DNA of 32,000 nt, from assembly GCF_001652585.1 (NCBI RefSeq), contig NZ_LWLG01000002.1, positions 180,001 through 212,000 on the forward strand, written 5' to 3'. The DNA comes from Thermosulfurimonas dismutans. GTDB lineage: Bacteria > Desulfobacterota > Thermodesulfobacteria > Thermodesulfobacteriales > Thermodesulfobacteriaceae. Under the pieces are notes generated by a model, which did not search any database, was not told where the DNA came from, and was given only the letters and a program-made list of their open reading frames with translations. The first letter of the stretch is position 1, and each line of letters begins with the position of its first letter. Positions 1-31,870 of the stretch are shown in pieces. A program made the position numbers and the translations under genes.

Positions 1-1451
1 AAGTGATTGGCAACTTCATAGAGCCCATGCCAGTGGGTGTAGTCCGGACCGAGCATAGCGGCTCCGTGACGGGCACGACGACCTTCATGATGCCAGATCT
101 CAAACCAGATCCAACCCACCTTGGACATGAAGGGGGACTTGGGCACCAGACCGTCCTTGACCAGCTCGGAGAAGATGCGCTTGGCGGGCTTAGCAAACTT
201 CTCGTTATAAGTGACCACCAGGGCATCAAACTGCTCATAGAAGTTATCCACTTGCTGCATGCTGTGACAGCTCTTACAGACCTCTTTCATCTCGGCCCGG
301 CGCTCCTTCCAGCTGATCACCTCCTTCACCTGTTTCTTAGTCTTCACCTTCACTAGCTTGTCACCCTTGCGCACGTAGTCGTAGACCTGCACAAATTGCC
401 CGGGAAGAGGCGGAATGTCTCCGGGAATGTCGTAAACCTTGCCGTCCGTAGTGATCACCCGGTTCAGCTTCACCGAGATCGGCGGACGTAGATTCCAAGA
501 GATACGGTCTCCCACATTGTGGGTGTTTGGCGCGATAGAACCGTTGGATTTCACATAAGCCCCCATATGACAGGTAGAGCAGGTAGGAGCGAAGTGATAA
601 TCCTTACCCAAGACCCAGCTACCGGTCTTAAGGATGTTCATCCCCATAAGCCCCCGCTCTCTGACCGCAGAAAGATAAGCAATTCCGTGCTTGGATTCTT
701 CATAAACCTCCTTCTGGGGATGATCCGGACCCAGGTGACACTTACCACAAGCAAAGGGCTGACGAGCCACACTCGCCCGAAAAGCGTGCTTGGAGTGACA
801 GGCATTACATGAACCCTTAGTGCCGTCAGGATTGATCCGCCCCATACCACTGTTAGGCCAGGTGGAAGGATCAAACTGAGGCGCTCCAGTTTTATTGCGA
901 ATAATGTTTCCTTTCTCGTCTTTCAGAACCTTGACCACCGATCCGTGACACTGCCAGCAAGCATTCTGAGCATCAGCCTTGGCCGCGTAAGCCGGAAGTC
1001 CCCACTTCTTCACCGACTCCGCCGGAGCACTACAGATCACCTCTCCAAGGATATTATCCAAGGATGCCATGATCTGTCCGGCCGTAGCATGATGGGAATT
1101 CTCAAACTCTTTAAATTCTCGGGAATGACAATAAGAGCAATCCTTGGGACTAATTAGGGTCTTAATAAAGGCCCCTTCGTGGTTATAACCCAAGGGATCC
1201 CCGGCATCAGCCGCGTGACAGGTGTAACAACCCACCGGGCCTTCTTTGGCTGCCGCATGGGGAGATTCCTGCCACTGAAACACCAAAGACTTGTTCTCCT
1301 TAAGGTGACACATCATACACTTCTTGTTCAATTCTTTAACTTTAGGATTAGTGACATCCTTAGAAAACTCCGTAGTAGCCCAACCAACTCCTCCCAACCA
1401 AAAAACACTTGCTACCATTACACCTAACAATCTCAAAAACCTCCATCTCAT
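1..1451 (-). CDS. HAO-family (hydroxylamine-oxidoreductase-like) octahaem cytochrome c; C-terminus lies outside the window
   Basis: Absent from the ORF track because it runs off the left edge. My own minus-strand translation from ATG 1451 (GAGGAGG SD just upstream) is open through all 483 visible codons. It has a signal peptide (MRWRFLRLLGVMVASVFWLGGVGWA) and eight CxxCH motifs: CMMCH, CYTCH, CSYCH, CWQCH, CNACH, CGKCH, CSTCH, CKSCH. The blocks CGKCHLGPDHPQKEVYEESKHG and WHHEGRRARHGAAMLGPDYTHWHG resemble HAO-type octahaem proteins. Confidence 0.85.
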   Translation of the reverse strand, partial: MRWRFLRLLGVMVASVFWLGGVGWATTEFSKDVTNPKVKELNKKCMMCHLKENKSLVFQWQESPHAAAKEGPVGCYTCHAADAGDPLGYNHEGAFIKTLISPKDCSYCHSREFKEFENSHHATAGQIMASLDNILGEVICSAPAESVKKWGLPAYAAKADAQNACWQCHGSVVKVLKDEKGNIIRNKTGAPQFDPSTWPNSGMGRINPDGTKGSCNACHSKHAFRASVARQPFACGKCHLGPDHPQKEVYEESKHGIAYLSAVRERGLMGMNILKTGSWVLGKDYHFAPTCSTCHMGAYVKSNGSIAPNTHNVGDRISWNLRPPISVKLNRVITTDGKVYDIPGDIPPLPGQFVQVYDYVRKGDKLVKVKTKKQVKEVISWKERRAEMKEVCKSCHSMQQVDNFYEQFDALVVTYNEKFAKPAKRIFSELVKDGLVPKSPFMSKVGWIWFEIWHHEGRRARHGAAMLGPDYTHWHGLYEVANH

Positions 1452-1466
1452 ACAGCACCTCCTCAA

Positions 1467-2642
1467 CTATTTTTTATAGGTTTTAACCTCTTCCGTTCCA
1501 AGCCATAATGGAAAAATTTTGGAAAGAACAAACAATATAATTATAGGGGCAATAAGAATAATAATGGTAGGCAAAATACCTTCTTTCTCGAAGAACTCGG
1601 GATGATAAAACACAAAGCCTCTACCACTCTTAGACATCATTTGACCACCCACTACCACATTCCAACGCATGCAGTAAACCTGAATAAGGAGCATAATTGA
1701 AGAAATCGCAGACAGATATTGCAAGGCCTTACCTCTCACATTTGCTAAAGATAATACTCCAAGAACTACCAGAGGAATGAACGAGAAAATAAAAACTTGC
1801 ATTACCCAAAAACTAACATAAAGAGGACCAAATAGCAGTTCATGCAAATGATGCCAACTTTCTTTCCTTAAATAGGCATGAACTCCGACTTCAAGAAGCT
1901 CAAAAACTACGTCGATAATAAGAAATCCCCACAAGTATTTTACCAAAGAAGAAAGACACTCTTCGTCTACAGCGCGACCTTTAACCCAGTGAACAAACAA
2001 GTATCCCAAAATGATACCCGAAATACCCGAGACACAAGCAGAAAGAAGGAAAATAATTGGCATCAGAGGCGTTGACCACCATTCTACAGCTTTAACACTC
2101 CCAAAAATAAAACCTACATAACCATGAAGAATACAGGCCATAGGAATACCAATAAGAGCCAACCAACTAGTTACTTTATGATCAAACTGTAAAGTAGCTG
2201 GAGATAGGTCTTGATTACCAAAAGTAAGCAATCGATAAAGCGTGGCTTTAAAACCCGTAGTTTGAGGCAATAACTTGGCAAAAACGCCACGATAGAGGAA
2301 CAAAATCTCCAACAACAGAACCACCATATAAGCACTATAAATAAAACCAAATCCCGCCATAGCCGAGGTAGGGTGAGGAGTCAACATAATATTAAAACAG
2401 CGCTCGGGACGCCCAAGATGATTTAAAAGTGGCCAAGTACAACAAAAACCAAAAGCCAAAGCAAAGACGAGAGCAAACCGCGAAACCGGCTTCAAGGCCT
2501 TCACATGAAAGACATGATAAAGAGAGGAAACAATAAAAGCACCGGCAATAATCCCGGTAATATAGGGATAAGTAACGATCATCAAAGACCAATGAATATG
2601 ATGCTCATTAGGAAAAACAAAACCTTCAACCAATCCACTCAT
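1467..2642 (-). CDS. NrfD/PsrC-type polytopic membrane subunit (putative quinone-interacting)
   Basis: The track ORF starts at TTG 2645. An ATG at 2642 shares one base with the TGA of the upstream Fe-S gene (TGATG). The protein is almost entirely hydrophobic helices. Its size (about 390 aa) and its position directly after an NrfC-type Fe-S protein fit the NrfD/PsrC family. The call rests on topology and context, not on a diagnostic motif. Confidence 0.7.
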   Translation of the reverse strand: MSGLVEGFVFPNEHHIHWSLMIVTYPYITGIIAGAFIVSSLYHVFHVKALKPVSRFALVFALAFGFCCTWPLLNHLGRPERCFNIMLTPHPTSAMAGFGFIYSAYMVVLLLEILFLYRGVFAKLLPQTTGFKATLYRLLTFGNQDLSPATLQFDHKVTSWLALIGIPMACILHGYVGFIFGSVKAVEWWSTPLMPIIFLLSACVSGISGIILGYLFVHWVKGRAVDEECLSSLVKYLWGFLIIDVVFELLEVGVHAYLRKESWHHLHELLFGPLYVSFWVMQVFIFSFIPLVVLGVLSLANVRGKALQYLSAISSIMLLIQVYCMRWNVVVGGQMMSKSGRGFVFYHPEFFEKEGILPTIIILIAPIIILFVLSKIFPLWLGTEEVKTYKK

Positions 2643-3409
2643 CAAATAACCTCCTGCCTCAAATGGAGATACTTAAGCCTTGGTTTAGTGCCCATATCGG
2701 GCTTAAGAACTCCTAAAGGCTCACTACTTTTCAATATTTGGGCCACCTCCGAATTTTCATCTCTAAGATCTCCAAACTTGCGAGCCCCTGTAGGACAAGC
2801 ATTCACACAAGCTGGTAGCAAACCTCGCCTCACGCGGTGATAACACCAAGTACACTTATCTGCCGTTCGCCTCTCCTTATGAATAAAGCGAACCCCGTAA
2901 GGACAAGCTTGAACACAGTAAGAACAGCCAATACATCGTTTATAATCAATCAATACAAAACCATCGTCAGTCTTAAAAGTAGCCCCCACCGGACAAACCT
3001 GAACGCAAGAAGGCTCTTCGCACATATTGCAGAGCTTAGGAACAAAAAAGGCATCTCGAATGGGCTTATCTATCTCCCGGGGCTCAGGATAACCTTTAAG
3101 AGCTCCCTTTGGAGAATCCACATAGACTTCCCCACCTTCCGCAATAAGGTATCGCTCCACCCAGGTACGGTATTGGCCGTCCGGAACTTGATATTCTCTC
3201 TTATCCGCCACACAACAGCTTCCACAGCCGATACAACGATTGATATCGACCAAAAAGACGTATTCATGGGCTTCGGGATCATACTTTTCATCTCTCAAAA
3301 TACCCGGAAGCTGAAGAGGTACCTTCACCGGCATAGGAAGGACCCAGTAAAGGGATCCCGCAGCACCCTTGAGAAGATATCCCAAAAACTTACGGCGCCC
3401 TTTATTCAC
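2642..3409 (-). CDS. Tat-exported 4x[4Fe-4S] ferredoxin-type subunit (NrfC/PsrB/DmsB family)
   Basis: GTG start at 3409 preceded by GGAGGGGG. Twin-arginine signal MNKGRRKFLGYLLKGAAG. Four Cys groups: CIGCGSCC, CNMCEEPSCVQVCP, CIGCSYCVQACP, CTWC...ACVNACP. It overlaps the upstream cytochrome gene by 8 nt. Confidence 0.85.
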   Translation of the reverse strand: MNKGRRKFLGYLLKGAAGSLYWVLPMPVKVPLQLPGILRDEKYDPEAHEYVFLVDINRCIGCGSCCVADKREYQVPDGQYRTWVERYLIAEGGEVYVDSPKGALKGYPEPREIDKPIRDAFFVPKLCNMCEEPSCVQVCPVGATFKTDDGFVLIDYKRCIGCSYCVQACPYGVRFIHKERRTADKCTWCYHRVRRGLLPACVNACPTGARKFGDLRDENSEVAQILKSSEPLGVLKPDMGTKPRLKYLHLRQEVI

Positions 3410-3983
3410 GAGCCCCCTCCTTCTCCTTCTCTAAGCCTGCAAAGAACTCATCGGCCTGCTTGATGTACTTAAGCGGTGCGTGCACAAGGTGACACTGATC
3501 ACAAGAATGCGTCTCCTTCACGTTCTGCTTTTTCAAATGATCCGGATAAAACACGGTCTTGATAACCTCGGGATTTTTAGGACGAGCATGAATAGCCCGA
3601 TTGTGACACCGCAAACACAAAGCCCGAATAGCTTCACCTCCCTTGGGATTCGGAAGATACCCAATCACTTTCCCCTCGCTATTTACATGATCAGCCCAAG
3701 GACCATGACAGAATTCGCAAGAAAGACTTCGATGTTTACTATTGACCTGGAGTTCATATTCCCAGGTATGACAACTCTCGCAGGAGGCATTCGTGAGATG
3801 ACGCGGCATTCGAGCCAACTCGTCGTCGATAGCCCCCTTCCGATAGAACTTATAGAAGAGGCTGCCATGATTCCCCAAATCTTTGGGAACCAGAAAAGTT
3901 CGTACCGTAGCCGCCAAAACCACCAAAACCACCAGCCCTACAACTATCCTTTTTGCATGGGTGCGATTCGGCTTCTCAGACAC
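3402..3983 (-). CDS. Membrane-anchored tetrahaem cytochrome c (NapC/NrfH-like topology)
   Basis: GTG start at 3983 with an AAGGGAG SD. One N-terminal TM helix (IVVGLVVLVVLAATV) followed by four CxxCH motifs (CESCH, CEFCH, CLRCH, CDQCH). First gene of the operon. Confidence 0.8.
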   Translation of the reverse strand: MSEKPNRTHAKRIVVGLVVLVVLAATVRTFLVPKDLGNHGSLFYKFYRKGAIDDELARMPRHLTNASCESCHTWEYELQVNSKHRSLSCEFCHGPWADHVNSEGKVIGYLPNPKGGEAIRALCLRCHNRAIHARPKNPEVIKTVFYPDHLKKQNVKETHSCDQCHLVHAPLKYIKQADEFFAGLEKEKEGARE

Positions 3984-4086
3984 CGTGCACTCCCTTCCCG
4001 CAAAATAGCTAAATCTCGTATAGCAGGCCTAAAATAGAGAAACAAGACAATAAAAATTTAAATTTGTTAAATTCATGTTAAAAAAA

Positions 4087-4782: not shown

Positions 4783-4959
4783 TTAGCAACCACAAGTACG
4801 ACGAGCGAATTCCTTAAAGGAATCGATTCTCACGGTCTTCCTTTCGGAAAATTCCTGCTGTTTTCCGGAATTCCAGTTCTGAACCGGCCGGAAATAGCCC
4901 ACCACCCGGCTGTAGATCTCACAGGGTACTACTTTAACCTTTACTTTCTCTCTAATCAT
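4783..4959 (-). CDS. Stand-alone 58-aa glycyl-radical domain of class III RNR (NrdD C-terminal module encoded as its own ORF)
   Basis: Not in the track because it is under 60 aa. Hand translation gives MIREKVKVKVVPCEIYSRVVGYFRPVQNWNSGKQQEFSERKTVRIDSFKEFARRTCGC. SRVVGY...NWNSGKQQEF..R matches the NrdD glycyl-radical signature (RVxGY...NxGKxxE). AAGGAGGTGA lies 3 nt upstream of the ATG. An in-frame TGA sits two codons upstream. The ATG overlaps the nrdD stop (CATGATTAG). Confidence 0.7.
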   Translation of the reverse strand: MIREKVKVKVVPCEIYSRVVGYFRPVQNWNSGKQQEFSERKTVRIDSFKEFARRTCGC

Positions 4960-7087
4960 GGCTCACCTCCTTTCTCACGTTTTCTTGAAAGAGAGGACCT
5001 TCAGGCCCCTCTTGAGGTTCAACCATGCGATAGGCCTCCTCAGGGAGCACCTTCAAGGCCTCGATAAAAACCTCTACCTCTCGACCATAGCGAGCGAGAT
5101 CCTCCTCTGTGTGGGGATAAGGACAAAATTCGTGTTTCCCGGGAAGATAACCGTGGACCGGACAAACTGAAAAAGTGGGCGTAATAGAGAAGTACGGAAG
5201 CCGGAAATTGTTAACCACCGCCTTTACCAATTCCTTCACCATCCCGGTATCCGGAATTTCCTCGCCTACAAAAAGATGAACCACCGTGCCTCCGGTAAAG
5301 AGGGCCTGAAGGTCATCTTGGTGAACGAGGATCTCAAAGATATCGTCGGTGTAGCCCACTGGAAGATGTACGGAATTGGTATAATAAGGCACTTTTTCAG
5401 TGCCTGCGGTCTTTATGCGCGGGAACTTCTTTTTGTCCAAGCGGGCCAGCCGATAGCTAGCTCCCTCGGCTGGAGTGGCCTCGAGGTTGTAGAGATTGCC
5501 CGTCTCCTCCTGGAACTCGGAGAGTTTATCCCGCATAAACTTTAGCACTTTGATTACCCATTCCTTAGCCTCGGGATGGTAGATAGGAAGTCCCAAGAAG
5601 TTGAGACAGGCTTCATTCATACCGATCACACCAATCGTAGAAAAGTGATTCCCCCAGTAACGGCCACTACACTCTTTTACCGCCTGGAGATAGACTCGAG
5701 AGTAAGGGTAGAGCCCTCGTTCGGTAAAGTCCTCAATAACCTTGCGCTTGATCTCAAGAGAGGTCTTAGCGAGTTCCATGAGGTCCGAAAGGCGCTCAAA
5801 GAATTCCTCCTCGCAGGTCGAGAGATAGGCAATACGAGGCATATTGATGGTTACCACCCCAATGGAACCCGTAAGAGGCGAAGCTCCAAAAAGCCCACCT
5901 CCCCGTCTCTCAAGCTCACGGTTGTCGAGCCTCAGGCGACAACACATACTACGGGCATCCTCGGGACGCATATCAGAATTCACAAAGTTGGCGAAGTAAG
6001 GAATACCGTATTTGCGGGTCATCTCCCAAAGAGGTTCGATTTCGGGGTTATCGTAGTCAAAGTCAGGAGTGATATTGTAAGTAGGAATGGGAAAAGTAAA
6101 GATGCGACCCTTGGCATCGCCTTCAAGCATGAGCTCGCAGAAGGCCCGGTTGATCATGTTCATCTCTTCCTTGAACTCGGCGTAGGTCTCCGGTATATCC
6201 CGGCCGCCCACTACCGCCGGAATGTCCTTCAAAGTCTCGGGGCACTCAAGGTCAAAAGTCAAATTGGTAAAAGGCGTCTGGAACCCTACCCTCGTGGGCA
6301 CGTTGACGTTGAAGATAAATTCTTGGAGACACTGCTTAACCTCTTCGTAAGAGAGACCATCATAGCGGACAAAAGGGGCCAGCAGGGTGTCAAAATTAGA
6401 GAAAGCCTGAGCCCCTGCGGCTTCACCCTGTAGGGTATAGAAAAAATTAACCACCTGTCCCAAAGCACTCCGGAAGTGTTTGGGAGGTGCGGATTCAACC
6501 TTCCCTGGGACACCGCCGAATCCGCGTTTCAAAAGTTCGTAGAGATCCCAGCCCACACAGTACGGACCAAGAATCCCTAGGTCATGAACATGAAAGTCGC
6601 CCTCAAAATGGGCCTCGCCAACCCTGGTCGGATAGAGTTTGTTCAGCCAATACCGAGCTACCACCGAGGAGGAAATATGGAAGTTAAGCCCCTGGAGACT
6701 GTAATTCATGTTGGAATTTTCCTGAACCCGCCAGTCCTCCCGGGTAAGGTACTCCTCAATGAGGTTGACCCCGTCCACCAGAGCTTTACCCAGTTCCCGG
6801 GCCTGACGGCGTTTCTCACGATAGAGGATGTAGGCCTTGGCCACATCCGCAAAACCAAGCTCCATCAAAGTCTTTTCCACCAGATCCTGGATCTGCTCCA
6901 CATGCGGAACACCGCCATGCTTGAAAAACTGGCGATAGAGTTTTACGGCCACGGCATCCGCTACTTTTTCCGCTGAGCCCTTATCCCCCTGCCCCACGGC
7001 CCGCATGGCCTTAAGTACCGCCCGGATAATACGGCGCCGATTAAAAGGCTGAAACTTACCATCTCGCTTTCTAACCAAAGGCTCCAT
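4952..7087 (-). CDS. nrdD: Anaerobic ribonucleoside-triphosphate reductase (class III) large polypeptide, lacking the glycyl-radical C-terminus
   Basis: N-terminal ATP-cone (VRKRDGKFQPFNRRRIIRAV...ILYREKRR). NrdD-type core (SMCCRLRLD, GSIGVVTINMPRIAY, NLEATPAEG). Ends ...VRKEVSHD without an RVxGY motif. ATG 7087 with an AGAGGGGGA SD. Confidence 0.9.
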   Translation of the reverse strand: MEPLVRKRDGKFQPFNRRRIIRAVLKAMRAVGQGDKGSAEKVADAVAVKLYRQFFKHGGVPHVEQIQDLVEKTLMELGFADVAKAYILYREKRRQARELGKALVDGVNLIEEYLTREDWRVQENSNMNYSLQGLNFHISSSVVARYWLNKLYPTRVGEAHFEGDFHVHDLGILGPYCVGWDLYELLKRGFGGVPGKVESAPPKHFRSALGQVVNFFYTLQGEAAGAQAFSNFDTLLAPFVRYDGLSYEEVKQCLQEFIFNVNVPTRVGFQTPFTNLTFDLECPETLKDIPAVVGGRDIPETYAEFKEEMNMINRAFCELMLEGDAKGRIFTFPIPTYNITPDFDYDNPEIEPLWEMTRKYGIPYFANFVNSDMRPEDARSMCCRLRLDNRELERRGGGLFGASPLTGSIGVVTINMPRIAYLSTCEEEFFERLSDLMELAKTSLEIKRKVIEDFTERGLYPYSRVYLQAVKECSGRYWGNHFSTIGVIGMNEACLNFLGLPIYHPEAKEWVIKVLKFMRDKLSEFQEETGNLYNLEATPAEGASYRLARLDKKKFPRIKTAGTEKVPYYTNSVHLPVGYTDDIFEILVHQDDLQALFTGGTVVHLFVGEEIPDTGMVKELVKAVVNNFRLPYFSITPTFSVCPVHGYLPGKHEFCPYPHTEEDLARYGREVEVFIEALKVLPEEAYRMVEPQEGPEGPLFQENVRKEVSHD

Positions 7088-7272: not shown

Positions 7273-8097
7273 TTAGCCTAGAACCGGAATCTTCTTCAGG
7301 GCCAGTTTCAGGACATCGCGCCGGCTAGGAGCCTTGGCTTCCACCTCTTCCCAAGTGCGCTTACGAGGAGCAAAACGCTTGATAAGCAGTTCCAGATTCT
7401 TTTCTTTACCCATGAAGTAGACGTTGGGGCCAATTTTGACCACATCAGATTCCAAACGTCGGGCTTTTCCGCTTTTCACGAGCTTAGAGACTTCGGAGTT
7501 GGGATCTCCAAGATCTCCAAAGATACGGGCATCAGCGATACAGGTTTTTACACAGGCCGGTATCTCACCGTGTATGATCCGCTCGTAGCAGAAAGTGCAC
7601 TTGTCGGCCTTGGGTTCATCCAAGGTATCGTTGAGATACCGAGCCTTATAAGGACAGGCCTCTACACAGTTTCCGCACCCGAGGCAGCGCTCCTTATCAA
7701 TGAGAACCGCCCCGGTAAAAGGTTCTTTATAGGTGGCCTTGATCTCCATCTTAACGGTCTTTCCGGTCTTATAGCACTTGAACTCCCGCTCCTCGGGATC
7801 CGCCGGACACACCTCCACACATACCGGCCGGTCACAGTGGTTACACAAACCCGGAAAGAAGGTGAAGGCCAAGCCCTTGCTGGTCCGTTCAGGTCCCAGT
7901 CTTAAAACCCAATTACGGCGATAATCGCCCCCTTCTGCCGAGACCGTCTGAAGCCAGTCGTTGTAATCCTTAATAAAGGAATAACCGTCATAGTTCGGAT
8001 TTACCGGAACCTGCCATTCGGCCCGGCAGGCCACGGCACAGGCATGACACCCCACACACCGATCTAGATCTATGACCATAGCCCATTGGTGCTTCAT
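7273..8097 (-). CDS. 4x[4Fe-4S] electron-transfer subunit of a molybdopterin oxidoreductase (PsrB/PhsB/DmsB family)
   Basis: Cys groups CVGCHACAVAC, CNHCDRPVCVEVCP, CLGCGNCVEACP, CTFC...ACVKTC. It has no signal peptide of its own, so it may be exported with the Tat-signal-bearing A subunit. AAGGAGGT SD. At 274 aa it is larger than typical PsrB, with insertions and a basic C-terminal tail. Confidence 0.85.
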   Translation of the reverse strand: MKHQWAMVIDLDRCVGCHACAVACRAEWQVPVNPNYDGYSFIKDYNDWLQTVSAEGGDYRRNWVLRLGPERTSKGLAFTFFPGLCNHCDRPVCVEVCPADPEEREFKCYKTGKTVKMEIKATYKEPFTGAVLIDKERCLGCGNCVEACPYKARYLNDTLDEPKADKCTFCYERIIHGEIPACVKTCIADARIFGDLGDPNSEVSKLVKSGKARRLESDVVKIGPNVYFMGKEKNLELLIKRFAPRKRTWEEVEAKAPSRRDVLKLALKKIPVLG

Positions 8098-8109
8098 TTT
8101 CTACCTCCT

Positions 8110-10416
8110 TTAACCCTTCTTGATTTCAAACCGAGGAATTTCATTAGGTACCGGGCGAAGCTCCGGAATATTCAAAACCTTACCGTCTTTCACGATCCGG
8201 ACAAAATTCGTCCGGTGGCTCGAGGCTCCCATAAAGGGATCCTGTACGTAGTAGGTAATCAGAAATTGATCACTAGCCCCCTTCTTGTAAGCCCGGGAAA
8301 GCTTGGGAGAAAGGCTTCCAAAACCGTGAGGGAGATAGATGCAGTCCGGCCGGATACCCGGAGTGACCTTGGCCTTGACCGGGAAGGAACGCTTACCGTC
8401 CTGGTTTTCAAGGATGATTTCGTCACCATCTTTGATGCCGATTTTGGCCGCCACTTCATCGTTTATCCAGGCGTGGTTTTCAGGCCATTCGTGGTGAAGC
8501 CACTCGTTGTTCATAGTCCGGCTAAAGGTATGCACTGGCACACGACCGTAAATGAGACGGGCATAACCCTTGGGAGGCGCCGGCGTGGGTTCGAACTTAG
8601 GCACCGGCGAAAAGTCTTCATCTGCAAAGTCTTCGATGGTCAAATGAACTTTGAAGCCCTTTTCACCAAAGATATTCTTGAAATTCTCACGATCATAGGC
8701 TCCCTTGGCCGGGAGGACCACCAGCCCCCCTTCCTCCCTGAGCTTTTCCAAAGTAAGGTTGAGGCCTTTGAGCTTTTCGTTGATGATCTCTTCTTCCGAC
8801 TCCGCGTGGAAGATATCAAAACCCATACGCTTGGCCAGTTCCTTGGCTACCCAGAAAGGCGGTTTAGCCTCTCCCAGAGGTTCCACGGCCGGCTGACGCA
8901 CAGTCACAAAACACTCTGGAAGACCGTCATAAGTATAAACATCATCGTAACGTTCGAGATAAACCGCATCCGGCAGAACGATATCAGACCAAAGGGCCGT
9001 TTCCGTAGGCAACATCTCTAAGGAGAACACGAAGTCCAGCTTTTTAAGGGCTTCCATCGTCTGATAGGGATTGGGGATAGTCTGAAGAATGTTTACCCCG
9101 CAGATACCCCAGGCCTTAATGGGATAGGGTTCCCCCGTAATAGTGGCCCGGATGATCTCATGGGTGGGATTCCCAGGCAAAGGCCCCGCAAAGGGATATT
9201 TTTCCTTGAGGGGCTCGTCAGACTCCTTCGGCTCCATCTCCTTCACAGAATGTACGTGTCCCAAAGAGATAGGCGTGGGGAAGTAGAGCCCTCCTGGAGT
9301 TCCGATACCACCAAAAAGGGCCGCCAAGATGGCCAAGGCCTGATGCCTATATACGTCTCCCTTACCATACCAGGTGGAGTGCCGCCCCGGATGGATGCAG
9401 ACATGGGGCTTAGCCTCCGCAAGCATCTTGATGGCCGCCTCAATGTCTTCCTTCTTGAGGTCACATATCTTGGCCGCCCAATCCAGGGTATAGTCCTTAA
9501 CGGCTTCCTTAAGCTCGGAAAAGCCTTCACAATATTTGTTCACAAACTCCTTATCGTAGAGCTCGTGCTTAATCACATAATTGATCCAGGCTAAAAGCAA
9601 CGCGGTATCCGTTCCTGGACGGATAGGGAGCCAGATATCGGCCTTACCGGCAGCCACTGAAAACCGAGGATCAACCACCACCAGTTTGGCTCCCTTAGAA
9701 AGTCCACCAACGAAATCCATTACATGAGATACATGAACGTTCTCACCAATGTGGGAGGCCACCAGCAACATGGCCTTAGCATTGGCCATGTCGGTGTACT
9801 GCATAGTCCCAGAGGTGAGATATCCCATGGTGGAAATGTAGGCTATGGCCACCGGCCCCACACACTGGAAAAACGCGGGCTCATTGGAGTAATTTTCCGT
9901 ACCAATGGCCTTGAAGATCTCCCGCAGAGGTTCCGCCGAAGCCCCATGATCAAAATAAGCAATAGCATGCGGTCCGTATTTATCTTTGACTTTCTTGAGG
10001 TTATAGGCCACCTCGTCCAAGGCTTCGTCCCAAGAGATCTTCACAAACTTACCTTCCCCTCTAGCTCCCTTTCTCTTCAAAGGATGGAGCACACGGTCAG
10101 GATCATAGAGCAACTTCACACCCGAGTTACCACGGGCACAAACCCGGGCCTTGTCGCCCCGACCATTGGTGGGACTCTTAGGGTTACCCTCAATCTTGAC
10201 CACCTTGCCGTTCTTGACCTTGGCCACAATAGGACAGCGCCAGAAGCACATCTCGCAGACCGAAGTTACCTCCTTGGCCCCTAGACTTCCCGGAAGCTCC
10301 CCACCCGTATCGCAATGGGCATAAGCCTTCTTAAAAAAGCTTCCGGATCTGAGATCCATAGTGGCCAGAGCCAAAGAGGCCCCTGCCGAAAGCTTAAGAA
10401 AATCTCTTCTCTTCAT
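8110..10416 (-). CDS. Tat-exported molybdopterin oxidoreductase catalytic subunit (PsrA/PhsA-like polysulfide/thiosulfate reductase family)
   Basis: The track starts at TTG 10422. ATG 10416 has GGGAGGAGG 6 nt upstream and gives MKRRDFLKLSAGASLALA...AYA, a Tat signal. The N-terminal Fe-S motif CEMCFWRCPIVAKVKNGKVVKIEGNP is very similar to PsrA/PhsA. Length about 768 aa. No in-frame TGA. Confidence 0.85.
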   Translation of the reverse strand: MKRRDFLKLSAGASLALATMDLRSGSFFKKAYAHCDTGGELPGSLGAKEVTSVCEMCFWRCPIVAKVKNGKVVKIEGNPKSPTNGRGDKARVCARGNSGVKLLYDPDRVLHPLKRKGARGEGKFVKISWDEALDEVAYNLKKVKDKYGPHAIAYFDHGASAEPLREIFKAIGTENYSNEPAFFQCVGPVAIAYISTMGYLTSGTMQYTDMANAKAMLLVASHIGENVHVSHVMDFVGGLSKGAKLVVVDPRFSVAAGKADIWLPIRPGTDTALLLAWINYVIKHELYDKEFVNKYCEGFSELKEAVKDYTLDWAAKICDLKKEDIEAAIKMLAEAKPHVCIHPGRHSTWYGKGDVYRHQALAILAALFGGIGTPGGLYFPTPISLGHVHSVKEMEPKESDEPLKEKYPFAGPLPGNPTHEIIRATITGEPYPIKAWGICGVNILQTIPNPYQTMEALKKLDFVFSLEMLPTETALWSDIVLPDAVYLERYDDVYTYDGLPECFVTVRQPAVEPLGEAKPPFWVAKELAKRMGFDIFHAESEEEIINEKLKGLNLTLEKLREEGGLVVLPAKGAYDRENFKNIFGEKGFKVHLTIEDFADEDFSPVPKFEPTPAPPKGYARLIYGRVPVHTFSRTMNNEWLHHEWPENHAWINDEVAAKIGIKDGDEIILENQDGKRSFPVKAKVTPGIRPDCIYLPHGFGSLSPKLSRAYKKGASDQFLITYYVQDPFMGASSHRTNFVRIVKDGKVLNIPELRPVPNEIPRFEIKKG

Positions 10417-10972
10417 GGACAACCTCCTCCCGCAGTCTATTTGTAATTACCGAAACCAGTTCCCCTAAAGCCCTGTAAAAGGGCTTGGGCTCAGCTTGTT
10501 TCAAGGCCAACAAAAACCGGGGATACCATTTCAAAAAGTGGTCTTCAAGGAAACCCCGAAGCAAGTCTTTACGATTTTCTTCCAGAAGCAAGGCCATAAA
10601 AGCCAGTTCATAGGCCACATGATCAGCAAAGTCACCATCCTCCACCGGCTCATAGCCGGCCTCGCGATAAAAGGCTAGGGCCTGATCATAACCTTCACCC
10701 TTGAGACGCCTGTCAGAAGAAAGATAAACCGAGGCATATGGAGGAGCTGGAGTACGGTAAGGAGAAGTAATGAAAAGTCGGGTATATTCGACTTTGAGTT
10801 CCTCTAAATCTTCCACCCGAAAATCTCCGTTAAGATCTAAACCAGCTTTTCGGGAAAGGGCCTGAAGATAGGAGATTAGGCTCAAAAAGCCCTCTTCTTC
10901 TGGATAGAGGAAGGCTTCCGCCAACATTCTCAGATCTTCAGGCCCAAACATAGCGGGTTCCCATTTAAACAC
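10394..10972 (-). CDS. TorD/DmsD-family redox-enzyme maturation chaperone
   Basis: About 190 aa with EYTRLF...PYASVY blocks typical of the TorD family. It sits immediately upstream of, and overlaps by 23 nt, the Tat-dependent molybdoenzyme gene. The start is uncertain: GTG 10972 or ATG 10951. Confidence 0.7.
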   Translation of the reverse strand: MFKWEPAMFGPEDLRMLAEAFLYPEEEGFLSLISYLQALSRKAGLDLNGDFRVEDLEELKVEYTRLFITSPYRTPAPPYASVYLSSDRRLKGEGYDQALAFYREAGYEPVEDGDFADHVAYELAFMALLLEENRKDLLRGFLEDHFLKWYPRFLLALKQAEPKPFYRALGELVSVITNRLREEVVHEEKRFS

Positions 10973-15331: not shown

Positions 15332-15910
15332 ATGAAAAAGGAAAGTCGCACATTCTATCTCCTTCTAATTTTGATAGGACTTTCCAGTTTAGCCTTCAAG
15401 TTTCCAGATTTCAAAGCCCCGGAGATGCCCCCTTATGTCAAATACCGACTTTCAAAACTTCCTCTCATTGGGCGTTTTGTAGAACCTCCCCCTCCACCGG
15501 AAAAGGAATACCTTGAAACCAAACAACTGATGGAAGAGCTTAGTCGAGCCCGAGCCGATCGTTACGCCCCTGAGCTTTACAGTCAGATCCAAAAAAAATG
15601 GAAAAGGGCCGAGGAATATTACCACACTGGACATTACGACTGGGCCGAGATCTATTTTGATAAAATCCGCAAACTCTCTCAGGAAGCCTTAAGCAAGGCT
15701 CGAACCATCCGTGAAAAAAAGAAAAAAGCCGCCCTGGCAGTCCTTAAAAAAATGCGGTCTTCCTATGAAAGCCACAAGAAAAAGCTACCCTTTGAGAAGA
15801 GGCTGAAGATAGAACTCGTTCTCTGGCGTCTTGAGACCCTGATCGAACTCGAAGAATTCGATCTGTTCGCGACCGAAGCCCAGGAAGCCCAAAAAAACTA
15901 CCATCTTTAA
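15332..15910 (+). CDS. Hypothetical secreted Lys/Glu-rich coiled-coil protein
   Basis: Signal-peptide-like N-terminus MKKESRTFYLLLILIGLSSLA, a PPPPPEKE run, then highly charged helical sequence. I recognise no family. Confidence 0.55.
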   Translation: MKKESRTFYLLLILIGLSSLAFKFPDFKAPEMPPYVKYRLSKLPLIGRFVEPPPPPEKEYLETKQLMEELSRARADRYAPELYSQIQKKWKRAEEYYHTGHYDWAEIYFDKIRKLSQEALSKARTIREKKKKAALAVLKKMRSSYESHKKKLPFEKRLKIELVLWRLETLIELEEFDLFATEAQEAQKNYHL

Positions 15911-17826
15911 CGACGCACGCCTTTTCTCAACACCCGTTTGTCTCCTATGCGGATAGTAACCTTTTCCCTATCAAGGTACTCTAGAAGAGGTATAAGATAT
16001 TTACGGGAAGCTCCACCAGTGAGCTTCCGGAAATCTCCCACGGAAAGTTCTTGATGGCGCTCAAGAAAATCTATCACCAGCTTTTTGGCTTCTTCGAGAA
16101 CGCGGCGGTGGAAATAAAGCTTTTCGGCAAGCCTTACCAAGACTCCTTCCTGGACCAGGAGTTCGAACATATCCAAGGCCAGTTTCGGCTTGGCCCGGAA
16201 ACGTGAAAGGGCTTCATCCGGATCAGGAGGGGTGAAGCGAGCCTTGAGAAATATCCTCTCAATATCGCCTTTTAAGGCCTCCGCCTCTTCCGGAAGGACC
16301 GGTTGATGGCTAGCCAGTCTTAAATATTCCCTTTCCGCAACTAGTTTCCCCTCGGAAATCAATGCTTCTAAGGCCCGCTCAAAAGTCCTTTGGTGAGCCC
16401 GGGTCGAGACCCTCGCCCTAAGTTCTTCCTTGGCCAATCCGGGCTTCAGGGGAAACTTCTCATGAAACTTACGCAGAGCTTCTTGAATCTCGGCCTTAAA
16501 ATCCTCAAAGACTGCTCTGGAGAGAATAAGCTCCTCATCTTCTTCCGGTATCCGAACCACCTCATCGGACATCTCTTTAAGGAGTTCTTCCCAGGCTTTA
16601 CCGAAAAGTGATACTCGCAGTTTCAAATCCGAGGCCTTGAGCCCGGCCTCTCCGGCCTTCTCTAAGTGATACCGTAAGATTTCTTTAGGGTCTTCTTCAA
16701 GAAGACGAAGCAGTTCCTCTCGTTCCCAAGGTTTGGTGCGTTTTCGCCGGTGGGCTACGGGATTTAGAACCCGGCCGCCACCAAGGGTGACCAAGGGACT
16801 CCCTCCTCGGATCACAAAGCGATCTCCCCTCAAGCAGACCACAGGCTCAGAAAGCCTTATCTGAGCAATATCTTTCTCGCCGACTTCTAACCGGTCTTTT
16901 CCGAAGAGGACGATCTCTCCAATGACCTCCGAAGTTCCGATATGGAAGTGTACCTTTTCAAGATTCTTGAGCGCACGGGGAGCACTTTTGAGATAAATGA
17001 GTTCTAGATCAAGAATCCGGGAAGGTTTCAAAACTCCCTGTTCGGCCACTACATCTCCGCGGGAGAGGGCTTCCCTTTCAAGTCCCTGAAGATTTAGGGC
17101 AGTACGCATACCTGCCAGGGCTTCCTCCCGATCTTCCCCGTGAACCTGAATGCGCCTTACTCGGGTGGAAAGCCCCTGGGGATAAACCAGGACTTCATCC
17201 CCAACCTTGACCTTGCCAGAAAGGGTGGTTCCGGTGACTACGGTTCCAAAGCCTTTAACAATGAACACCCTATCCACAGGCAATCTAAAAGGACCTTCGG
17301 TCGACCGGTCCGGAATCTTAGAGACCAGCTCGTCCAAAGTCTTAAGAAGCTCTGAAAGGCCCTCCCCACTTACCGCCGAGACCGCTACTAAGGGAGCATC
17401 TTCAAGAAAAGTTCCACGTAAGGCTTCCCGCACGTCCTCTTTAACCAGCTCCAACCACTCCTCGTCCACCAGATCCCTTTTGGTTAGAACCACCAGACCA
17501 GTTTTCACGCCCAAGAGTTCGCAGATCTCGAGATGTTCACGGGTCTGGGGCATAACCCCCTCGTCGGCGGCAATTACCAGGGCTACTAAATCTACCCCTG
17601 CGGCTCCGGCTACCATGTTCCTCACGAACCTTTCGTGTCCAGGCACATCTACAATGCCAACCCGGTTGCCAGAAGGAAGATCAAGATGAGCAAAACCGAG
17701 CTCAATGGTGATACCGCGTTCCTTTTCCTCCTTTAGGCGATCGGTATCTATGCCCGTTAGGGCTTTGACTAACGTAGTTTTTCCGTGATCAATGTGTCCA
17801 GCAGTTCCCAGAATAACTCGCTTCAT
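15907..17826 (-). CDS. selB: Selenocysteine-specific translation elongation factor
   Basis: GTPase N-terminus [55 protein letters not shown] long C-terminal extension ends ...[29 protein letters not shown], typical of the SelB winged-helix SECIS-binding domains. Confidence 0.9.
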
Positions 17827-28991: not shown

Positions 28992-30107
28992 TTAAATGCC
29001 CTCCCTCAAGATCTCTAAGGCCCGATCAATATCTTCCAGAGTGGTAAATCTCCCCAGGGAGAACCTTATGGTTCCCCTAGCCACCTCCGGCGGGACCCCC
29101 ATGGCCGAAAGGACATGGGAGATGGCCTCCGCCCGGTCGTGGCAGGCCGAACCGGTGGAAGCGCATATTCCTCGAGCCCGGGAGAGCACCTCCGCCGCGC
29201 TGAGTCCTGGAAAAGATACACTCAGGGTGTTCGGAAGGGTTAGCTCTGGATCTCCATGTCTTATGGTCTTGGGATAGATCTCGTTAAGGCCCTCCCATAG
29301 CCTTTCCCGCAAGTACTTCTCTCTTTCGGCCTCTTCCCGAAGATCCGAGGCTGCCACTTCCGCGGCCTTTCCCAGACCCGCGATAAGGGCCATCGGCTCG
29401 GTACCGGGCCGAAGGCCTCTTTCCTGTCCTGCCCCAAAAAGGATCCTCGAAAGCTCAACCCCCTTCCGTATATAGAGGGCCCCAATGCCCTTGGGGGCGT
29501 ACATCTTGTGACCGGCGATGGTCAAAAGATCGCAACCGATCTCTTTGACCGAGACTGGAATCTTGCCCACGGCCTGGGCGGCGTCGGTGTGAAAAAGAAC
29601 CTCGGCTTCCCGGCAAACTTTCGCAATCTCTGCCACCGGCTGGATGGCCCCGGTCTCGTTATTGGCCAGCATTACCGAAACCAGCACGGTCTCAGGCCGA
29701 AGTCTGCGCCTCACCTCCTCCGGGTCCACATACCCCTTCCCGTCAACCGGGAGGAAGTCTACGGCGTAGCCCATCTCAAGGAGCCTTAACGCTGGCTCTA
29801 ATACCGAGGGGTGCTCGATCTTCGAAATCAGGACGTGTCCTCTTTCCCTCCGGAGAACCGTACCGAAAAGGGCCAGGTTATTGGCCTCCGTGCCTCCGGA
29901 AACAAAGAGAATTTCTTCGGAGTCCGCAGCTATCAGCCGGGCAAGCGCCCTTCGGGCCTCTTCTAGGATCTCTTTGGCTCGCAGACCATAAGCGTGTCCA
30001 GAACTCGGATTCCCGAATTCTTCCGTGAGACAAAACCTCACGGTCTCGGCCACCTCCGGGAGGACTGGCGTGGTGGCGTTGTAGTCTAGATAAACGGGCC
30101 GGTTCAT
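28992..30107 (-). CDS. Cysteine desulfurase (NifS/IscS-type class V aminotransferase)
   Basis: GGTEANN, HTDAAQAVGK, PLP-lysine context AGHKMYAPKGIGALY and active-site loop STGSACH. ATGA overlap with the upstream 588-aa gene. Confidence 0.9.
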   Translation of the reverse strand: MNRPVYLDYNATTPVLPEVAETVRFCLTEEFGNPSSGHAYGLRAKEILEEARRALARLIAADSEEILFVSGGTEANNLALFGTVLRRERGHVLISKIEHPSVLEPALRLLEMGYAVDFLPVDGKGYVDPEEVRRRLRPETVLVSVMLANNETGAIQPVAEIAKVCREAEVLFHTDAAQAVGKIPVSVKEIGCDLLTIAGHKMYAPKGIGALYIRKGVELSRILFGAGQERGLRPGTEPMALIAGLGKAAEVAASDLREEAEREKYLRERLWEGLNEIYPKTIRHGDPELTLPNTLSVSFPGLSAAEVLSRARGICASTGSACHDRAEAISHVLSAMGVPPEVARGTIRFSLGRFTTLEDIDRALEILREGI

Positions 30108-31870
30108 TTCCGTATCTCCCGGATCAGATCAAAAAGAGCCCGGGCGGCCTCTTTGGGACCTTCTTGTTCGTAGCCCTCGAGAGCCAACCGGGTCCGGATC
30201 TGCCCCACCCTCACCCCTCGGGCGAACATGGCCTCGAAGTATCTACGGGCAAGTTTCTCGTGCGCCTCCCTCCTCTGAGGGGCCCCGAAGGGATTGGCAA
30301 AATAGGTGTGCACCAGACCCTTTTCATCCGTGGTGCCCTTGGCCATCCTGGCCCCGGCACGGAAGACTGAAAGGGCCGTCTCCGGATCCTCAAAAAACTC
30401 CACCGCCGGTCGGGCCTTGCTCACCTCCTCGTAGTTGTTGGCGTAAAGAAAAAGATCCACCTTGAAGCCCTGTACAATCCGGTGGTAATACGCCACCGGG
30501 ATCACCACCCGGGCGTTAGTAAGATGGGGATTCATGAAAATACTGCGATCGATCTCGGAAAAGGCGTAACCCGGGGAAAGATCGTCAAGCCTCACGAAGG
30601 CCCCGATCTCGGTCCCGTAACATTTGAGGCCCTCCGCATCCTCACTGATAGAGCCCATGTCGTCGAAGATGACGATCATGTCGCTCAGGTAATCCTCGGA
30701 AAGGAGCCGAAAGGCCTCCAGGGTCTCGCTCTTTCCGGCCCCGGAATCCCCCACAATTACTAGCGTGGCCCGGGAGCCATCCTTGAGGACGATGTGCACC
30801 CCGGCCCCGTGGAGTGGTAAACGCCCCTGACGGATCATGATGATGTTGTGCAGGGTAAGGGTAGTCTTCTTGAGATAACCGAAATAGTCTGCAATCTCCT
30901 CGCCGATGACATAGCCCACCACCAGGTCGTTCTCTCGATCCTCATAGAAGAAAGAGATGCCCTCCTCGGGAAGTCTCGGACCTCCGAAGATCAAAATGGC
31001 ATCCGGACGGGCCCCTTGGATCTCGATCTTGTCCGCTAGTTCAAATAAATTGGCCAAAGAAAAACCCAGGGAGGCGAATTCGCGCCAAAAATAGATGAAG
31101 ATCAAAAGCGGCCCCACCTTGGCCGGATAGCAGAACCACTCCTCGGGATCGAGCCTGAGTTTAGCAAGGGGATTGTAGGAAAGCTCGACGAAAGCCCCCT
31201 GCCGGCGAATCTGGCGAGGATAGAAAATGATAGGCGGTTCAAGAAGGGCATAACGAATAAAGGGGATCTCCGCCAGAACACTGTATTCCTGAGAGGGGAT
31301 TTCCCAGGATATGGGCTCGGTGAGGGCCCCCAGGTTGGCTCCAGCCGGAAGCTGGCGGTACACACGGATGGCTTCTCCGGTAAGGTTAGTGCTTATGGTA
31401 CGGTAAACCCGAAGGATGAGCCCCTTGAGTTCCTCGTTCAGGTTCACGAAGCTGGCTTTATAGAGGCTGGACTTCCCGGCCACCCCTTCAGCCACGGCCG
31501 GAAGGATAAGGTAACGTTCAAAGGAGCGCCAGAAGTTGTAAAAGCCTTCCACGAATTCCCGCCAGAGACAGCGGGCCTCGATCACCGGCTGCCATTCGGG
31601 ATTGAGTTCCGGAAGCTCCTCTGCCCGATGAAGCATGAGTAGCTTAAAAAAGAGGAGAATTTTGGCCCGTAACCTCTCCTCGTCTCTTGTACCTAGATTA
31701 GCAACGATTTCCTCGTATCTAAGGGTGTTTTTCTTGCGGAGGTGTCGCAGGTAACGCCTCAAGATCTCCTCGAAGAGGGGACTTTTCAGCAACTTTTCGG
31801 GAGTATCACAATAAAGCTTGCCGGAATTGATAAAAATCTTTCGTTGGGATACGAAATAGGGAGCTTGCAT
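30104..31870 (-). CDS. Uncharacterised 588-aa protein with a PEPCK/HPr-kinase-fold P-loop domain in its C-terminal half
   Basis: LPLHGAGVHIVLKDGSRATLVIVGDSGAGKSETLEAF...MIVIFDDMGSI parallels the HprK core (hG..v...g.gvLi.G.SG.GKSE...lv.DD) and the PEPCK kinase-1a/-2 layout. The P-loop is at 30725-30751. I recognise nothing in the N-terminal 340 aa. It is clearly coding (long ORF, coupled to nifS), but the function is unknown. Confidence 0.6.
   Translation of the reverse strand: MQAPYFVSQRKIFINSGKLYCDTPEKLLKSPLFEEILRRYLRHLRKKNTLRYEEIVANLGTRDEERLRAKILLFFKLLMLHRAEELPELNPEWQPVIEARCLWREFVEGFYNFWRSFERYLILPAVAEGVAGKSSLYKASFVNLNEELKGLILRVYRTISTNLTGEAIRVYRQLPAGANLGALTEPISWEIPSQEYSVLAEIPFIRYALLEPPIIFYPRQIRRQGAFVELSYNPLAKLRLDPEEWFCYPAKVGPLLIFIYFWREFASLGFSLANLFELADKIEIQGARPDAILIFGGPRLPEEGISFFYEDRENDLVVGYVIGEEIADYFGYLKKTTLTLHNIIMIRQGRLPLHGAGVHIVLKDGSRATLVIVGDSGAGKSETLEAFRLLSEDYLSDMIVIFDDMGSISEDAEGLKCYGTEIGAFVRLDDLSPGYAFSEIDRSIFMNPHLTNARVVIPVAYYHRIVQGFKVDLFLYANNYEEVSKARPAVEFFEDPETALSVFRAGARMAKGTTDEKGLVHTYFANPFGAPQRREAHEKLARRYFEAMFARGVRVGQIRTRLALEGYEQEGPKEAARALFDLIREIRK

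Follow-up and report, generated by a model that had tools for sequence, protein, structure and literature searches.

How an octahaem cytochrome c of the HAO family is wired to the quinone pool, and on which substrate it acts, is the question raised by four genes at the left end of a 32,000-nt stretch of contig NZ_LWLG01000002.1 (positions 180,001–212,000). This stretch is referred to below as the window, and coordinates are window positions. The genes lie in tandem on the minus strand within positions 1–3983 and encode, in order, a tetrahaem cytochrome c, an iron-sulfur (FeS) protein, an NrfD-family membrane protein and the octahaem cytochrome, which is truncated by the window edge. We propose that this operon encodes a periplasmic menaquinol:nitrite (hydroxylamine/nitric oxide (NO)) oxidoreductase with an HAO-fold catalytic subunit and ammonium as its product, a reading to which we give a probability of roughly 0.55. 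Both the cluster architecture and the nitrite-reductase hypothesis are already in print, and the module is a variant wiring of known modules rather than a new kind of system; because of this, the value of the present work lies in a sharper, testable definition of the system and not in its discovery.

Database searches place the octahaem protein in the HAO family (PF13447), within clade 1 of PMC9250108, to which HAO, HDH and also IhOCC belong, and on the IhOCC side of it. The protein begins with a signal-like hydrophobic segment and contains eight CxxCH motifs, at residues 45, 75, 105, 165, 215, 235, 291 and 392; HMMER aligns motifs 1, 2, 4, 5, 6, 7 and 8 to those of 1FGJ and 4FAS, in HAO-like order and spacing. 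The match to PF13447 reached 1.2e-21 (77.6 bits; cutoff 21.9). Among solved structures every match was to an HAO-family member, and the best were IhOCC (4QO5; 3.3e-44) and HAOr (6H5L; 7e-17), followed by HDH (6HIF; 2e-12), Nitrosomonas europaea HAO (1FGJ; 3e-12) and Kuenenia HOX (4N4J; 8e-10), and a profile of the octahaem family matched IhOCC at 9e-55. Sequence identity is 33% to IhOCC (over 254 residues) and 24% to Nitrosomonas HAO, while the closest relative, a 544-aa protein from a metagenome-assembled genome (MAG) of Thermosulfurimonas sp., is 93% identical. NrfA, ONR, Otr (1SP3) and MccA (4RKM) gave no match in the PDB search at E<=1 and were ruled out as identities of the protein on that ground; NrfB (PRK11659) scored only 16.8 bits. 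An earlier note on this DNA, made from the sequence alone, had likewise taken the protein for an HAO-family member rather than an Otr or MccA, an assignment that these searches uphold.

The tetrahaem protein carries four CxxCH motifs (residues 68, 89, 123 and 161) behind a single N-terminal hydrophobic, predicted transmembrane (TM) helix at residues 13–31. These motifs and four further histidines, H84, H99, H149 and H168, are invariant among 37 homologues, and the protein therefore has enough ligands for four bis-His haems. In Pfam it matched Cytochrom_c3_2 weakly (5e-6) and had no match to PF03264, NCBIfam returned neither NrfH (TIGR03153) nor NrfB at E<=0.01, and comparison with the NrfH structure 2J7A gave an E-value of 0.41. 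On these similarities it is classed as c3-like and not as NapC/NrfH-type. The AlphaFold2 (AF2) model of this protein was poor apart from the TM helix, with a mean predicted local distance difference test score (pLDDT) of 55, and for that reason was not usable.

In the FeS protein a twin-arginine motif, GRRKFL, is present, and its 16 cysteines fall into four groups of cluster ligands; the Pfam match is to Fer4_11 (7e-27). Its scores against NCBIfam models were 228 bits for TtrB (cutoff 416), 167 for DsrO (cutoff 200) and 151 for NrfC (150.7; cutoff 377.6), with 94.5 for QrcC (cutoff 400); since all of these fall under the cutoffs, we regard the protein as a homologue, not an orthologue, of TtrB, DsrO and NrfC. 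The membrane protein, with about nine hydrophobic segments, matches PF03916 over the whole domain (1.8e-40), and its NCBIfam scores for NrfD (49.6 bits; cutoff 347.6) and DsrP (48.6) are both far under the cutoff. Members of the NrfD family carry no cofactor motifs. Judged from these scores, the FeS and membrane proteins are general NrfC-like and NrfD-like family members and not orthologues of any named system, and NCBIfam supplies a name for none of the four operon proteins.

Successive genes of the operon overlap by 8 nt at the first junction and by 4 nt at the second, and 15 nt separate the last two; a GGAGG-like Shine-Dalgarno sequence stands in front of all four start codons; the four genes are translationally coupled. 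The arrangement is far beyond chance; the gene order is preserved across genomes whose proteins are only 47–60% identical. In these respects the earlier note was accurate: it had given the four genes as joined by overlaps or gaps of at most 15 nt, which agrees with the open reading frame (ORF) coordinates, it had identified all four products as the domain matches, motifs and export signals now do, and it had distinguished the tetrahaem partner from the NapC/NrfH-type HaoB, consistent with the lack of PF03264 and TIGR03153 matches. It had also described a four-gene unit, which has to be enlarged, as a conserved fifth gene lies just past the left edge of the window.

The gene-neighbourhood survey that the note had suggested was carried out with one genome per species. 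At least 594 genomes contained a relative of the octahaem protein; 80 loci were kept, and two MAG chromosomes were added. The order tetrahaem–FeS–NrfD–octahaem recurs in 32 of the 33 assessable loci whose octahaem protein is at least 57% identical to that of the window, the exception being locus L016. These loci come from two phyla, comprising Desulfobacterota together with Arcobacter and Sulfurospirillaceae. All 49 loci whose octahaem protein is at most 53% identical (a group that includes Verrucomicrobiota, Zixibacteria, Latescibacterota, KSB1, Brocadia, Nitrospira and Planctomycetota) lack the module. Presence in 32 of 33 close loci against none of 49 in the sister clade means that the wiring through an NrfCD-type pair plus tetrahaem cytochrome defines one subfamily.

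The sister subfamily, to judge from its gene neighbourhoods, reaches the quinone pool by another route. In 21 of the 49 sister-clade loci (for example L036:5187-8476, L043 and L052) the octahaem gene adjoins genes that encode a cytochrome b and a Rieske protein, which provide the quinol link, and these loci contain no NrfD or tetrahaem homologue. The octahaem proteins concerned are 42–53% identical to the window protein and share its invariant Asp-His pair and Arg, described below. A conserved protein of about 205 aa without a Pfam match follows the octahaem gene in four of the Rieske/cytochrome b loci. A larger NrfC-like FeS ORF, of about 340–530 aa, lies about 1.3–2.9 kb upstream of the octahaem gene in four loci of Planctomycetota and Verrucomicrobiota (L071, L075, L079 and L084), with no detectable NrfD or tetrahaem homologue beside it; it may represent a further wiring.

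The fifth gene, which encodes a secreted protein of about 190–240 aa, follows the octahaem gene in 31 of 35 module loci. A 93%-identical Thermosulfurimonas MAG (L001) served as a proxy for the DNA to the left of the window and has this gene at the corresponding spot. The protein, in which PT..AH.K..YW and ATVK are the characteristic motifs, matches nothing in Pfam or NCBIfam and is one of the two ‘periplasmic unknowns’ of a published cluster considered below. Its AF2 model is confident (pLDDT 87; predicted template modelling score (pTM) 0.80), and a Foldseek search of that model against the PDB gave nothing significant (best E-value 0.046, with a template modelling score of 0.22). This conserved fifth secreted protein probably belongs to the system. 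When all neighbouring ORFs were clustered without bias, nothing but the five core genes and generic sensor kinases proved frequent.

The main support for a nitrogen substrate is the repeated, independent linkage of the module to genes of N-oxide metabolism. The napA gene lies within 7 kb of the module in six of the 35 loci, which belong to unrelated lineages (Thermosulfurimonas, a Desulfobulbaceae MAG, Desulfocapsa, the ‘Proteobacteria bacterium’ MAG of locus L015, Arcobacter and Sulfurospirillaceae) and show at least three arrangements. Three more loci, from Desulfobacteraceae-type genomes, have the hybrid-cluster protein gene hcp (Prismane) directly upstream of the five genes (L085:1492-3135, L035:2345-4006 and L029:2381-4039). 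The relatives of the octahaem protein are consistent with such a substrate: IhOCC has been called an octahaem nitrite reductase (PMC9250108), HAOr reduces nitrite, and epsilonproteobacterial HAOs without the Tyr do the same in vitro with both nitrite and hydroxylamine (PMC8042395).

The cluster itself has been described before. Mardanov et al. (2016) reported TDIS_0606-0609, beside napMADGH, as an oxidoreductase of unstated specificity (PMC4911364), and the orthologous cluster of Dissulfuribacter thermophilus is DBT_2326-2329 (PMC4911364, PMC5276818). Slobodkina et al. (2017) demonstrated nitrate ammonification in T. dismutans and D. thermophilus, which lack nrfA, and described an 11-gene cluster of napMADGH, two periplasmic unknowns and the four-gene locus, which they hypothesised to reduce nitrite or, alternatively, sulfur compounds (PMC5276818); the same cluster was found in T. 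marina and strain F29 in 2022 (PMC9676032). TDIS_0606-0609 and DBT_2326-2329 comprise the same four genes in the same order and in the same genus-level lineage, so that the window operon is their orthologue and its architecture is no different. The window proteins are 74–93% identical to those of the Thermosulfurimonas MAG, whose contig continues into two unknown periplasmic proteins and napMADGH, as published. The function given in these papers is a hypothesis, and the complex was wrongly put on the cytoplasmic side in PMC4911364.

These publications alter one part of the earlier account and leave another in place. The architecture, which the note had not recognised, was published in 2016, 2017 and 2022; its opinion that the module is uncharacterised agrees with the literature, in which we found no biochemical characterisation. 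Of a description with an assigned function, which the note had named as grounds against its view, only the first half is in print: the module has been described, but its function has been proposed and not assigned. The note had also raised the possibility of a nitrite reductase in an organism lacking NrfA, which fits the nap and hcp linkage and the ammonification of nitrate without nrfA (PMC5276818).

These data have led us to propose a model. Observed are the identities of the subunits, their topology signals, the HAO-family membership, a conserved module and the linkage of that module with nap and hcp; the order in which electrons move, the substrate with its product, and the direction in which the enzyme works are inferred. 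The NrfD-family subunit would oxidise menaquinol, and the Tat-exported NrfC-like subunit, with its four [4Fe-4S] clusters, would carry the electrons on to the membrane-anchored tetrahaem cytochrome c, which would relay them to the octahaem protein. The latter, a secreted HAO-family cytochrome, would be the catalytic subunit and work reductively, most likely forming ammonium from nitrite and from hydroxylamine and NO as intermediates. The module would thus complete Nap-dependent nitrate ammonification in bacteria without NrfA, and in sulfate reducers it would serve the detoxification of nitrite and NO.

Several points weigh against this reading, and they are taken up here together with the alternatives that they favour. 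Neither nap nor hcp is found nearby in 26 of the 35 loci (that of Desulfobacula phenolica, for example), the literature holds, as noted, no biochemical characterisation of the module or of any member of the subfamily that we could find, and the nrfA status of the genome from which the window comes cannot be read from 32 kb. The top scores of the FeS subunit are with TtrB and DsrO and not NrfC, and most hosts of the module are sulfur-cycling Desulfobacterota, which reduce or disproportionate sulfur compounds. IhOCC, the nearest solved relative, comes from an archaeon that respires by reducing sulfur. A PhsA-like molybdenum (Mo) enzyme is encoded 3 kb from the module in the window, and the authors of PMC5276818 themselves offered sulfur compounds as the alternative. 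The FeS scores and the points listed after them would suit an oxidoreductase for sulfite, tetrathionate, thiosulfate or polysulfide built on an HAO-fold octahaem cytochrome, by analogy with MccA/SirA-CD or Otr. We consider such an enzyme distinctly unlikely, as the search at E<=1 detected no resemblance of the octahaem protein to either MccA or Otr and as nap and hcp recur beside the module, while the unbiased neighbour clustering revealed no recurrent sulfur-metabolism gene there.

The active site bears on the choice between ammonium and NO as the product of the nitrite reductase that we favour. With the N. europaea HAO sequence (a 100% match to 4FAS) as the alignment reference, the fourth haem motif of the octahaem protein, CWQCH, aligns with the haem 4 (P460) motif CTMCH, and the proximal ligand of haem 4 is therefore His and not Lys. 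The distal Asp267-His268 pair of HAO (GVDH) has its counterpart in Asp243-His244 of a GPDHP segment, a pair shared without exception by the 80 family members from genomes; at this position IhOCC has DPDV and HAOr GPDHP. Tyr334 of the HAO active site, characteristic of the oxidative type, is replaced by Arg322, an Arg again invariant in all 80 members. Retention of the GPDH pair, with DPDV in IhOCC and GPDHP in HAOr, places the distal pocket nearer to HAO and HAOr than to IhOCC, with the addition of the Arg.

The resemblance to HAOr counts against ammonium as the product, since the Asp-His segment is most like that of an enzyme which makes NO (PMC8042395); the GPDHP(Q/D) segment is in fact near-identical between the two (CHMGPDHPDAESYGESKHG and CHLGPDHPQKEVYEESKHG). 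The same wiring could accordingly serve an N-oxide enzyme that is not a respiratory ammonifier, either one that converts nitrite to NO only, as HAOr does, or one whose main task in sulfate reducers is to detoxify nitrite, NO or hydroxylamine. The majority of hosts are either sulfate reducers or MAGs without a nap gene nearby, and Hcp, which adjoins the module in the three loci listed above, is an NO- and hydroxylamine-handling protein. We regard this as possible but unlikely. Thermosulfurimonas and Dissulfuribacter make ammonium from nitrate without NrfA (PMC5276818) and therefore need a six-electron nitrite reductase, and the invariant Arg and His near haem 4 would, by extension from PMC8042395, resemble the proton-delivering residues of the ammonifying NrfA.

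Direction is the second point on which the active site speaks, since a Tyr crosslink to haem 4 of the neighbouring subunit would mark an oxidative enzyme. The earlier note had placed the region of the crosslinking Tyr outside the window. The C-terminal residues of the octahaem protein, about 61 in number, do fall to the left of it, but the loop homologous to the HAO loop NPGGWTYTEGWG, which contains the crosslinking Tyr467, lies inside, at nt 50–24, and reads GPDYTHWHG. HMMER local and glocal alignments stop short of this loop, and the counterpart of Tyr467 differs with the alignment used: it is Tyr471 by hhalign (low confidence), His473 when aligned by eye via IhOCC, and Trp474 by MAFFT. The MAFFT set included 60 distant representatives, HAO, HOX and IhOCC, was anchored by a helix Glu, a Pro and a Gly, and put the invariant Trp474 of the family, and a Phe of IhOCC, at the position of Tyr467. 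Tyr471 is kept in 77 of 80 orthologues and is Phe in the other three, one of them in a complete-module locus; in distant subfamilies the position is W, F or I.

A near-invariant Tyr in the crosslink loop, superposed by hhalign on Tyr467 of HAO, is the remaining point against a reductive enzyme. It would fit a Tyr-crosslinked, P460-type haem that oxidises hydroxylamine or a related reduced N compound, with the tetrahaem cytochrome and the NrfCD-type pair feeding the electrons into the quinone pool, as an anaerobic counterpart of the HAO–c554–cM552 chain of nitrifiers. We hold this to be very improbable. The hosts are strict anaerobes, and we know of no source of hydroxylamine in them; on this reading strictly anaerobic Desulfobacterota and Campylobacterota would use a P460-type HAO to oxidise a reduced N (or other) compound and pass its electrons to menaquinone. 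The one alignment that favours it is of low confidence, while the broader MAFFT alignment has an invariant Trp at the Tyr467 position, where IhOCC, reported to be without the P460 crosslink (PMC9250108), has Phe. The substitution by Phe in three orthologues, including one with the complete module, and by W, F or I in distant subfamilies points the same way. Although the alignment is ambiguous, the octahaem protein thus probably has no crosslinking Tyr.

Comparison with known systems shows where the proposed reductase would stand among them. IhOCC (Igni_0955; 4QO5) of Ignicoccus hospitalis is the closest solved relative and shares its eight-haem layout and its C-terminal helices with the window protein; it differs in being archaeal and in having DPDV in place of the GPDH Asp-His pair. 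The partner of eHao is, in the account of the earlier note, the NapC/NrfH-type HaoB. The window tetrahaem protein is not of the NapC/NrfH family (no PF03264 or TIGR03153 match), and membership in an eHao/HaoB-type module of the reverse-HURM kind was rejected on that basis. Both eHao and the anammox HAOr (Kustc0458, with Kustc0457) are HAO-family octahaem cytochromes that work reductively and lack the Tyr crosslink (PMC8042395), eHao being likened by description and HAOr sharing the GPDHP motif with the window protein. The partner of HAOr is the dihaem Kustc0457 (PMC8042395), whereas those of the window protein are a c3-like anchored tetrahaem cytochrome and an NrfCD-type pair.

In its logic the module is most like the E. 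coli-type NrfABCD, where quinol oxidation by NrfD is followed by electron transfer through the four-cluster NrfC and a multihaem c mediator to a periplasmic multihaem nitrite reductase (PMC12285233). The two differ in that NrfABCD uses a pentahaem NrfA with a CxxCK motif and a soluble pentahaem NrfB, while the window encodes a His-ligated HAO-family octahaem cytochrome and a TM-anchored tetrahaem cytochrome. By analogy, the module would be a functional counterpart of NrfABCD in which an HAO-type octahaem cytochrome takes the place of NrfA and the anchored tetrahaem cytochrome that of NrfB. Membership in NrfABCD proper was rejected, as there is no CxxCK in the operon, its cytochromes are octahaem and tetrahaem, and the NrfC and NrfD scores lie under the equivalog cutoffs. 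Membership in MccACD/SirACD or with Otr was likewise set aside for want of detectable similarity of the octahaem subunit to MccA or Otr, and ACIII/Qrc because the operon has no molybdopterin-like subunit (the N-terminal part of ActB, or QrcB) and its FeS protein is a stand-alone protein of 255 aa.

The module matters for ammonification that does not depend on NrfA; it occurs widely, has sharp limits and lends itself to experiment. It forms a fixed five-gene unit over many Desulfobacterota and some Campylobacterota and is not confined to one genus. In nitrate ammonifiers without NrfA, of which Thermosulfurimonas and Dissulfuribacter are two among several, it is the best-placed candidate for the nitrite reductase. 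If this function is confirmed, gene-based estimates of DNRA (the dissimilatory reduction of nitrate to ammonium) drawn from nrfA and onr alone would overlook the organisms that carry the module. It would also provide a third wiring of an HAO-fold enzyme to the quinone pool, besides Rieske/cytochrome b and the NapC/NrfH-type HaoB or dihaem Kustc0457.

Features of the operon and its surroundings. Positions are those of the window unless a locus is named.
Feature	Position	Strand	Remarks
Membrane-anchored tetrahaem cytochrome c	3402..3983	-	193 aa, GTG start
Tat-exported 4x[4Fe-4S] protein, NrfC/PsrB/TtrB/DsrO family	2642..3409	-	255 aa
NrfD/PsrC-family integral membrane subunit	1467..2645	-	392 aa
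HAO-family octahaem cytochrome c (IhOCC-like clade), signal peptide	1..1451	-	483 of ~544 residues in window
Fourth haem motif CWQCH	945..959	-	residues 165-169; HMMER alignment with haem 4 (P460) motif of N. europaea HAO
Asp243-His244 in GPDHP	720..725	-	HMMER alignment; counterpart of distal Asp267-His268 of N. europaea HAO
Arg322	486..488	-	HMMER alignment of THNVGDRISWNLRP to THNITRKTRWANYP; aligned with active-site Tyr334 of N. europaea HAO
Loop GPDYTHWHG	24..50	-	residues 468-476; homologous to HAO loop with crosslinking Tyr467
AT-rich intergenic region upstream of operon	3984..4086	-	likely promoter region, as we infer
Fifth gene	L001:9685-10266	+	Thermosulfurimonas MAG; corresponds to spot just beyond left edge of window

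Upstream of the operon, the intergenic regions of the window and of the Thermosulfurimonas MAG have TTAACAAAYTTAAA in common, and a conserved stretch, TTAACAAA(T/C)TTAAA, precedes the tetrahaem gene in both (window 4040-4075, minus strand, and L001:5375-5410). This stretch may bind a regulator or form part of a promoter. Scans of the region for sigma-70 promoter and terminator consensus sequences gave nothing above shuffled expectation.

Further genes of the window were noted in passing. A Tat-signal molybdopterin oxidoreductase is encoded at 7273-10972 (minus strand) and scores best against the thiosulfate reductase PhsA (471 bits; cutoff 694); this is the PhsA-like Mo enzyme mentioned above. 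Its neighbours are a four-cluster FeS subunit and a DmsD/TorD-like chaperone, with no adjacent gene for a membrane anchor. It was considered as a partner of the module and rejected, because nrdDG separates the two and because neighbour clustering found no counterpart recurring beside the module in other genomes. Neither Pfam nor NCBIfam nor PADLOC gave a match for the ORFs at 30104-31870 (minus strand; 588 aa) and 15332-15910 (plus strand; 192 aa). The anaerobic ribonucleotide reductase NrdD is encoded at 4952-7087 (minus strand) as a protein of 711 aa; the Thermosulfurimonas MAG has, at L001:983-4679, an NrdD of 1170 aa and a 57-aa remnant, with about 1.4–1.5 kb of extra DNA between the aligned NrdD blocks, which looks like an intein or some other insertion. 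No in-frame TGA occurs in any of the four operon genes. The selenocysteine-specific elongation factor SelB is encoded at 15907-17826 (minus strand), and the organism therefore makes selenoproteins.

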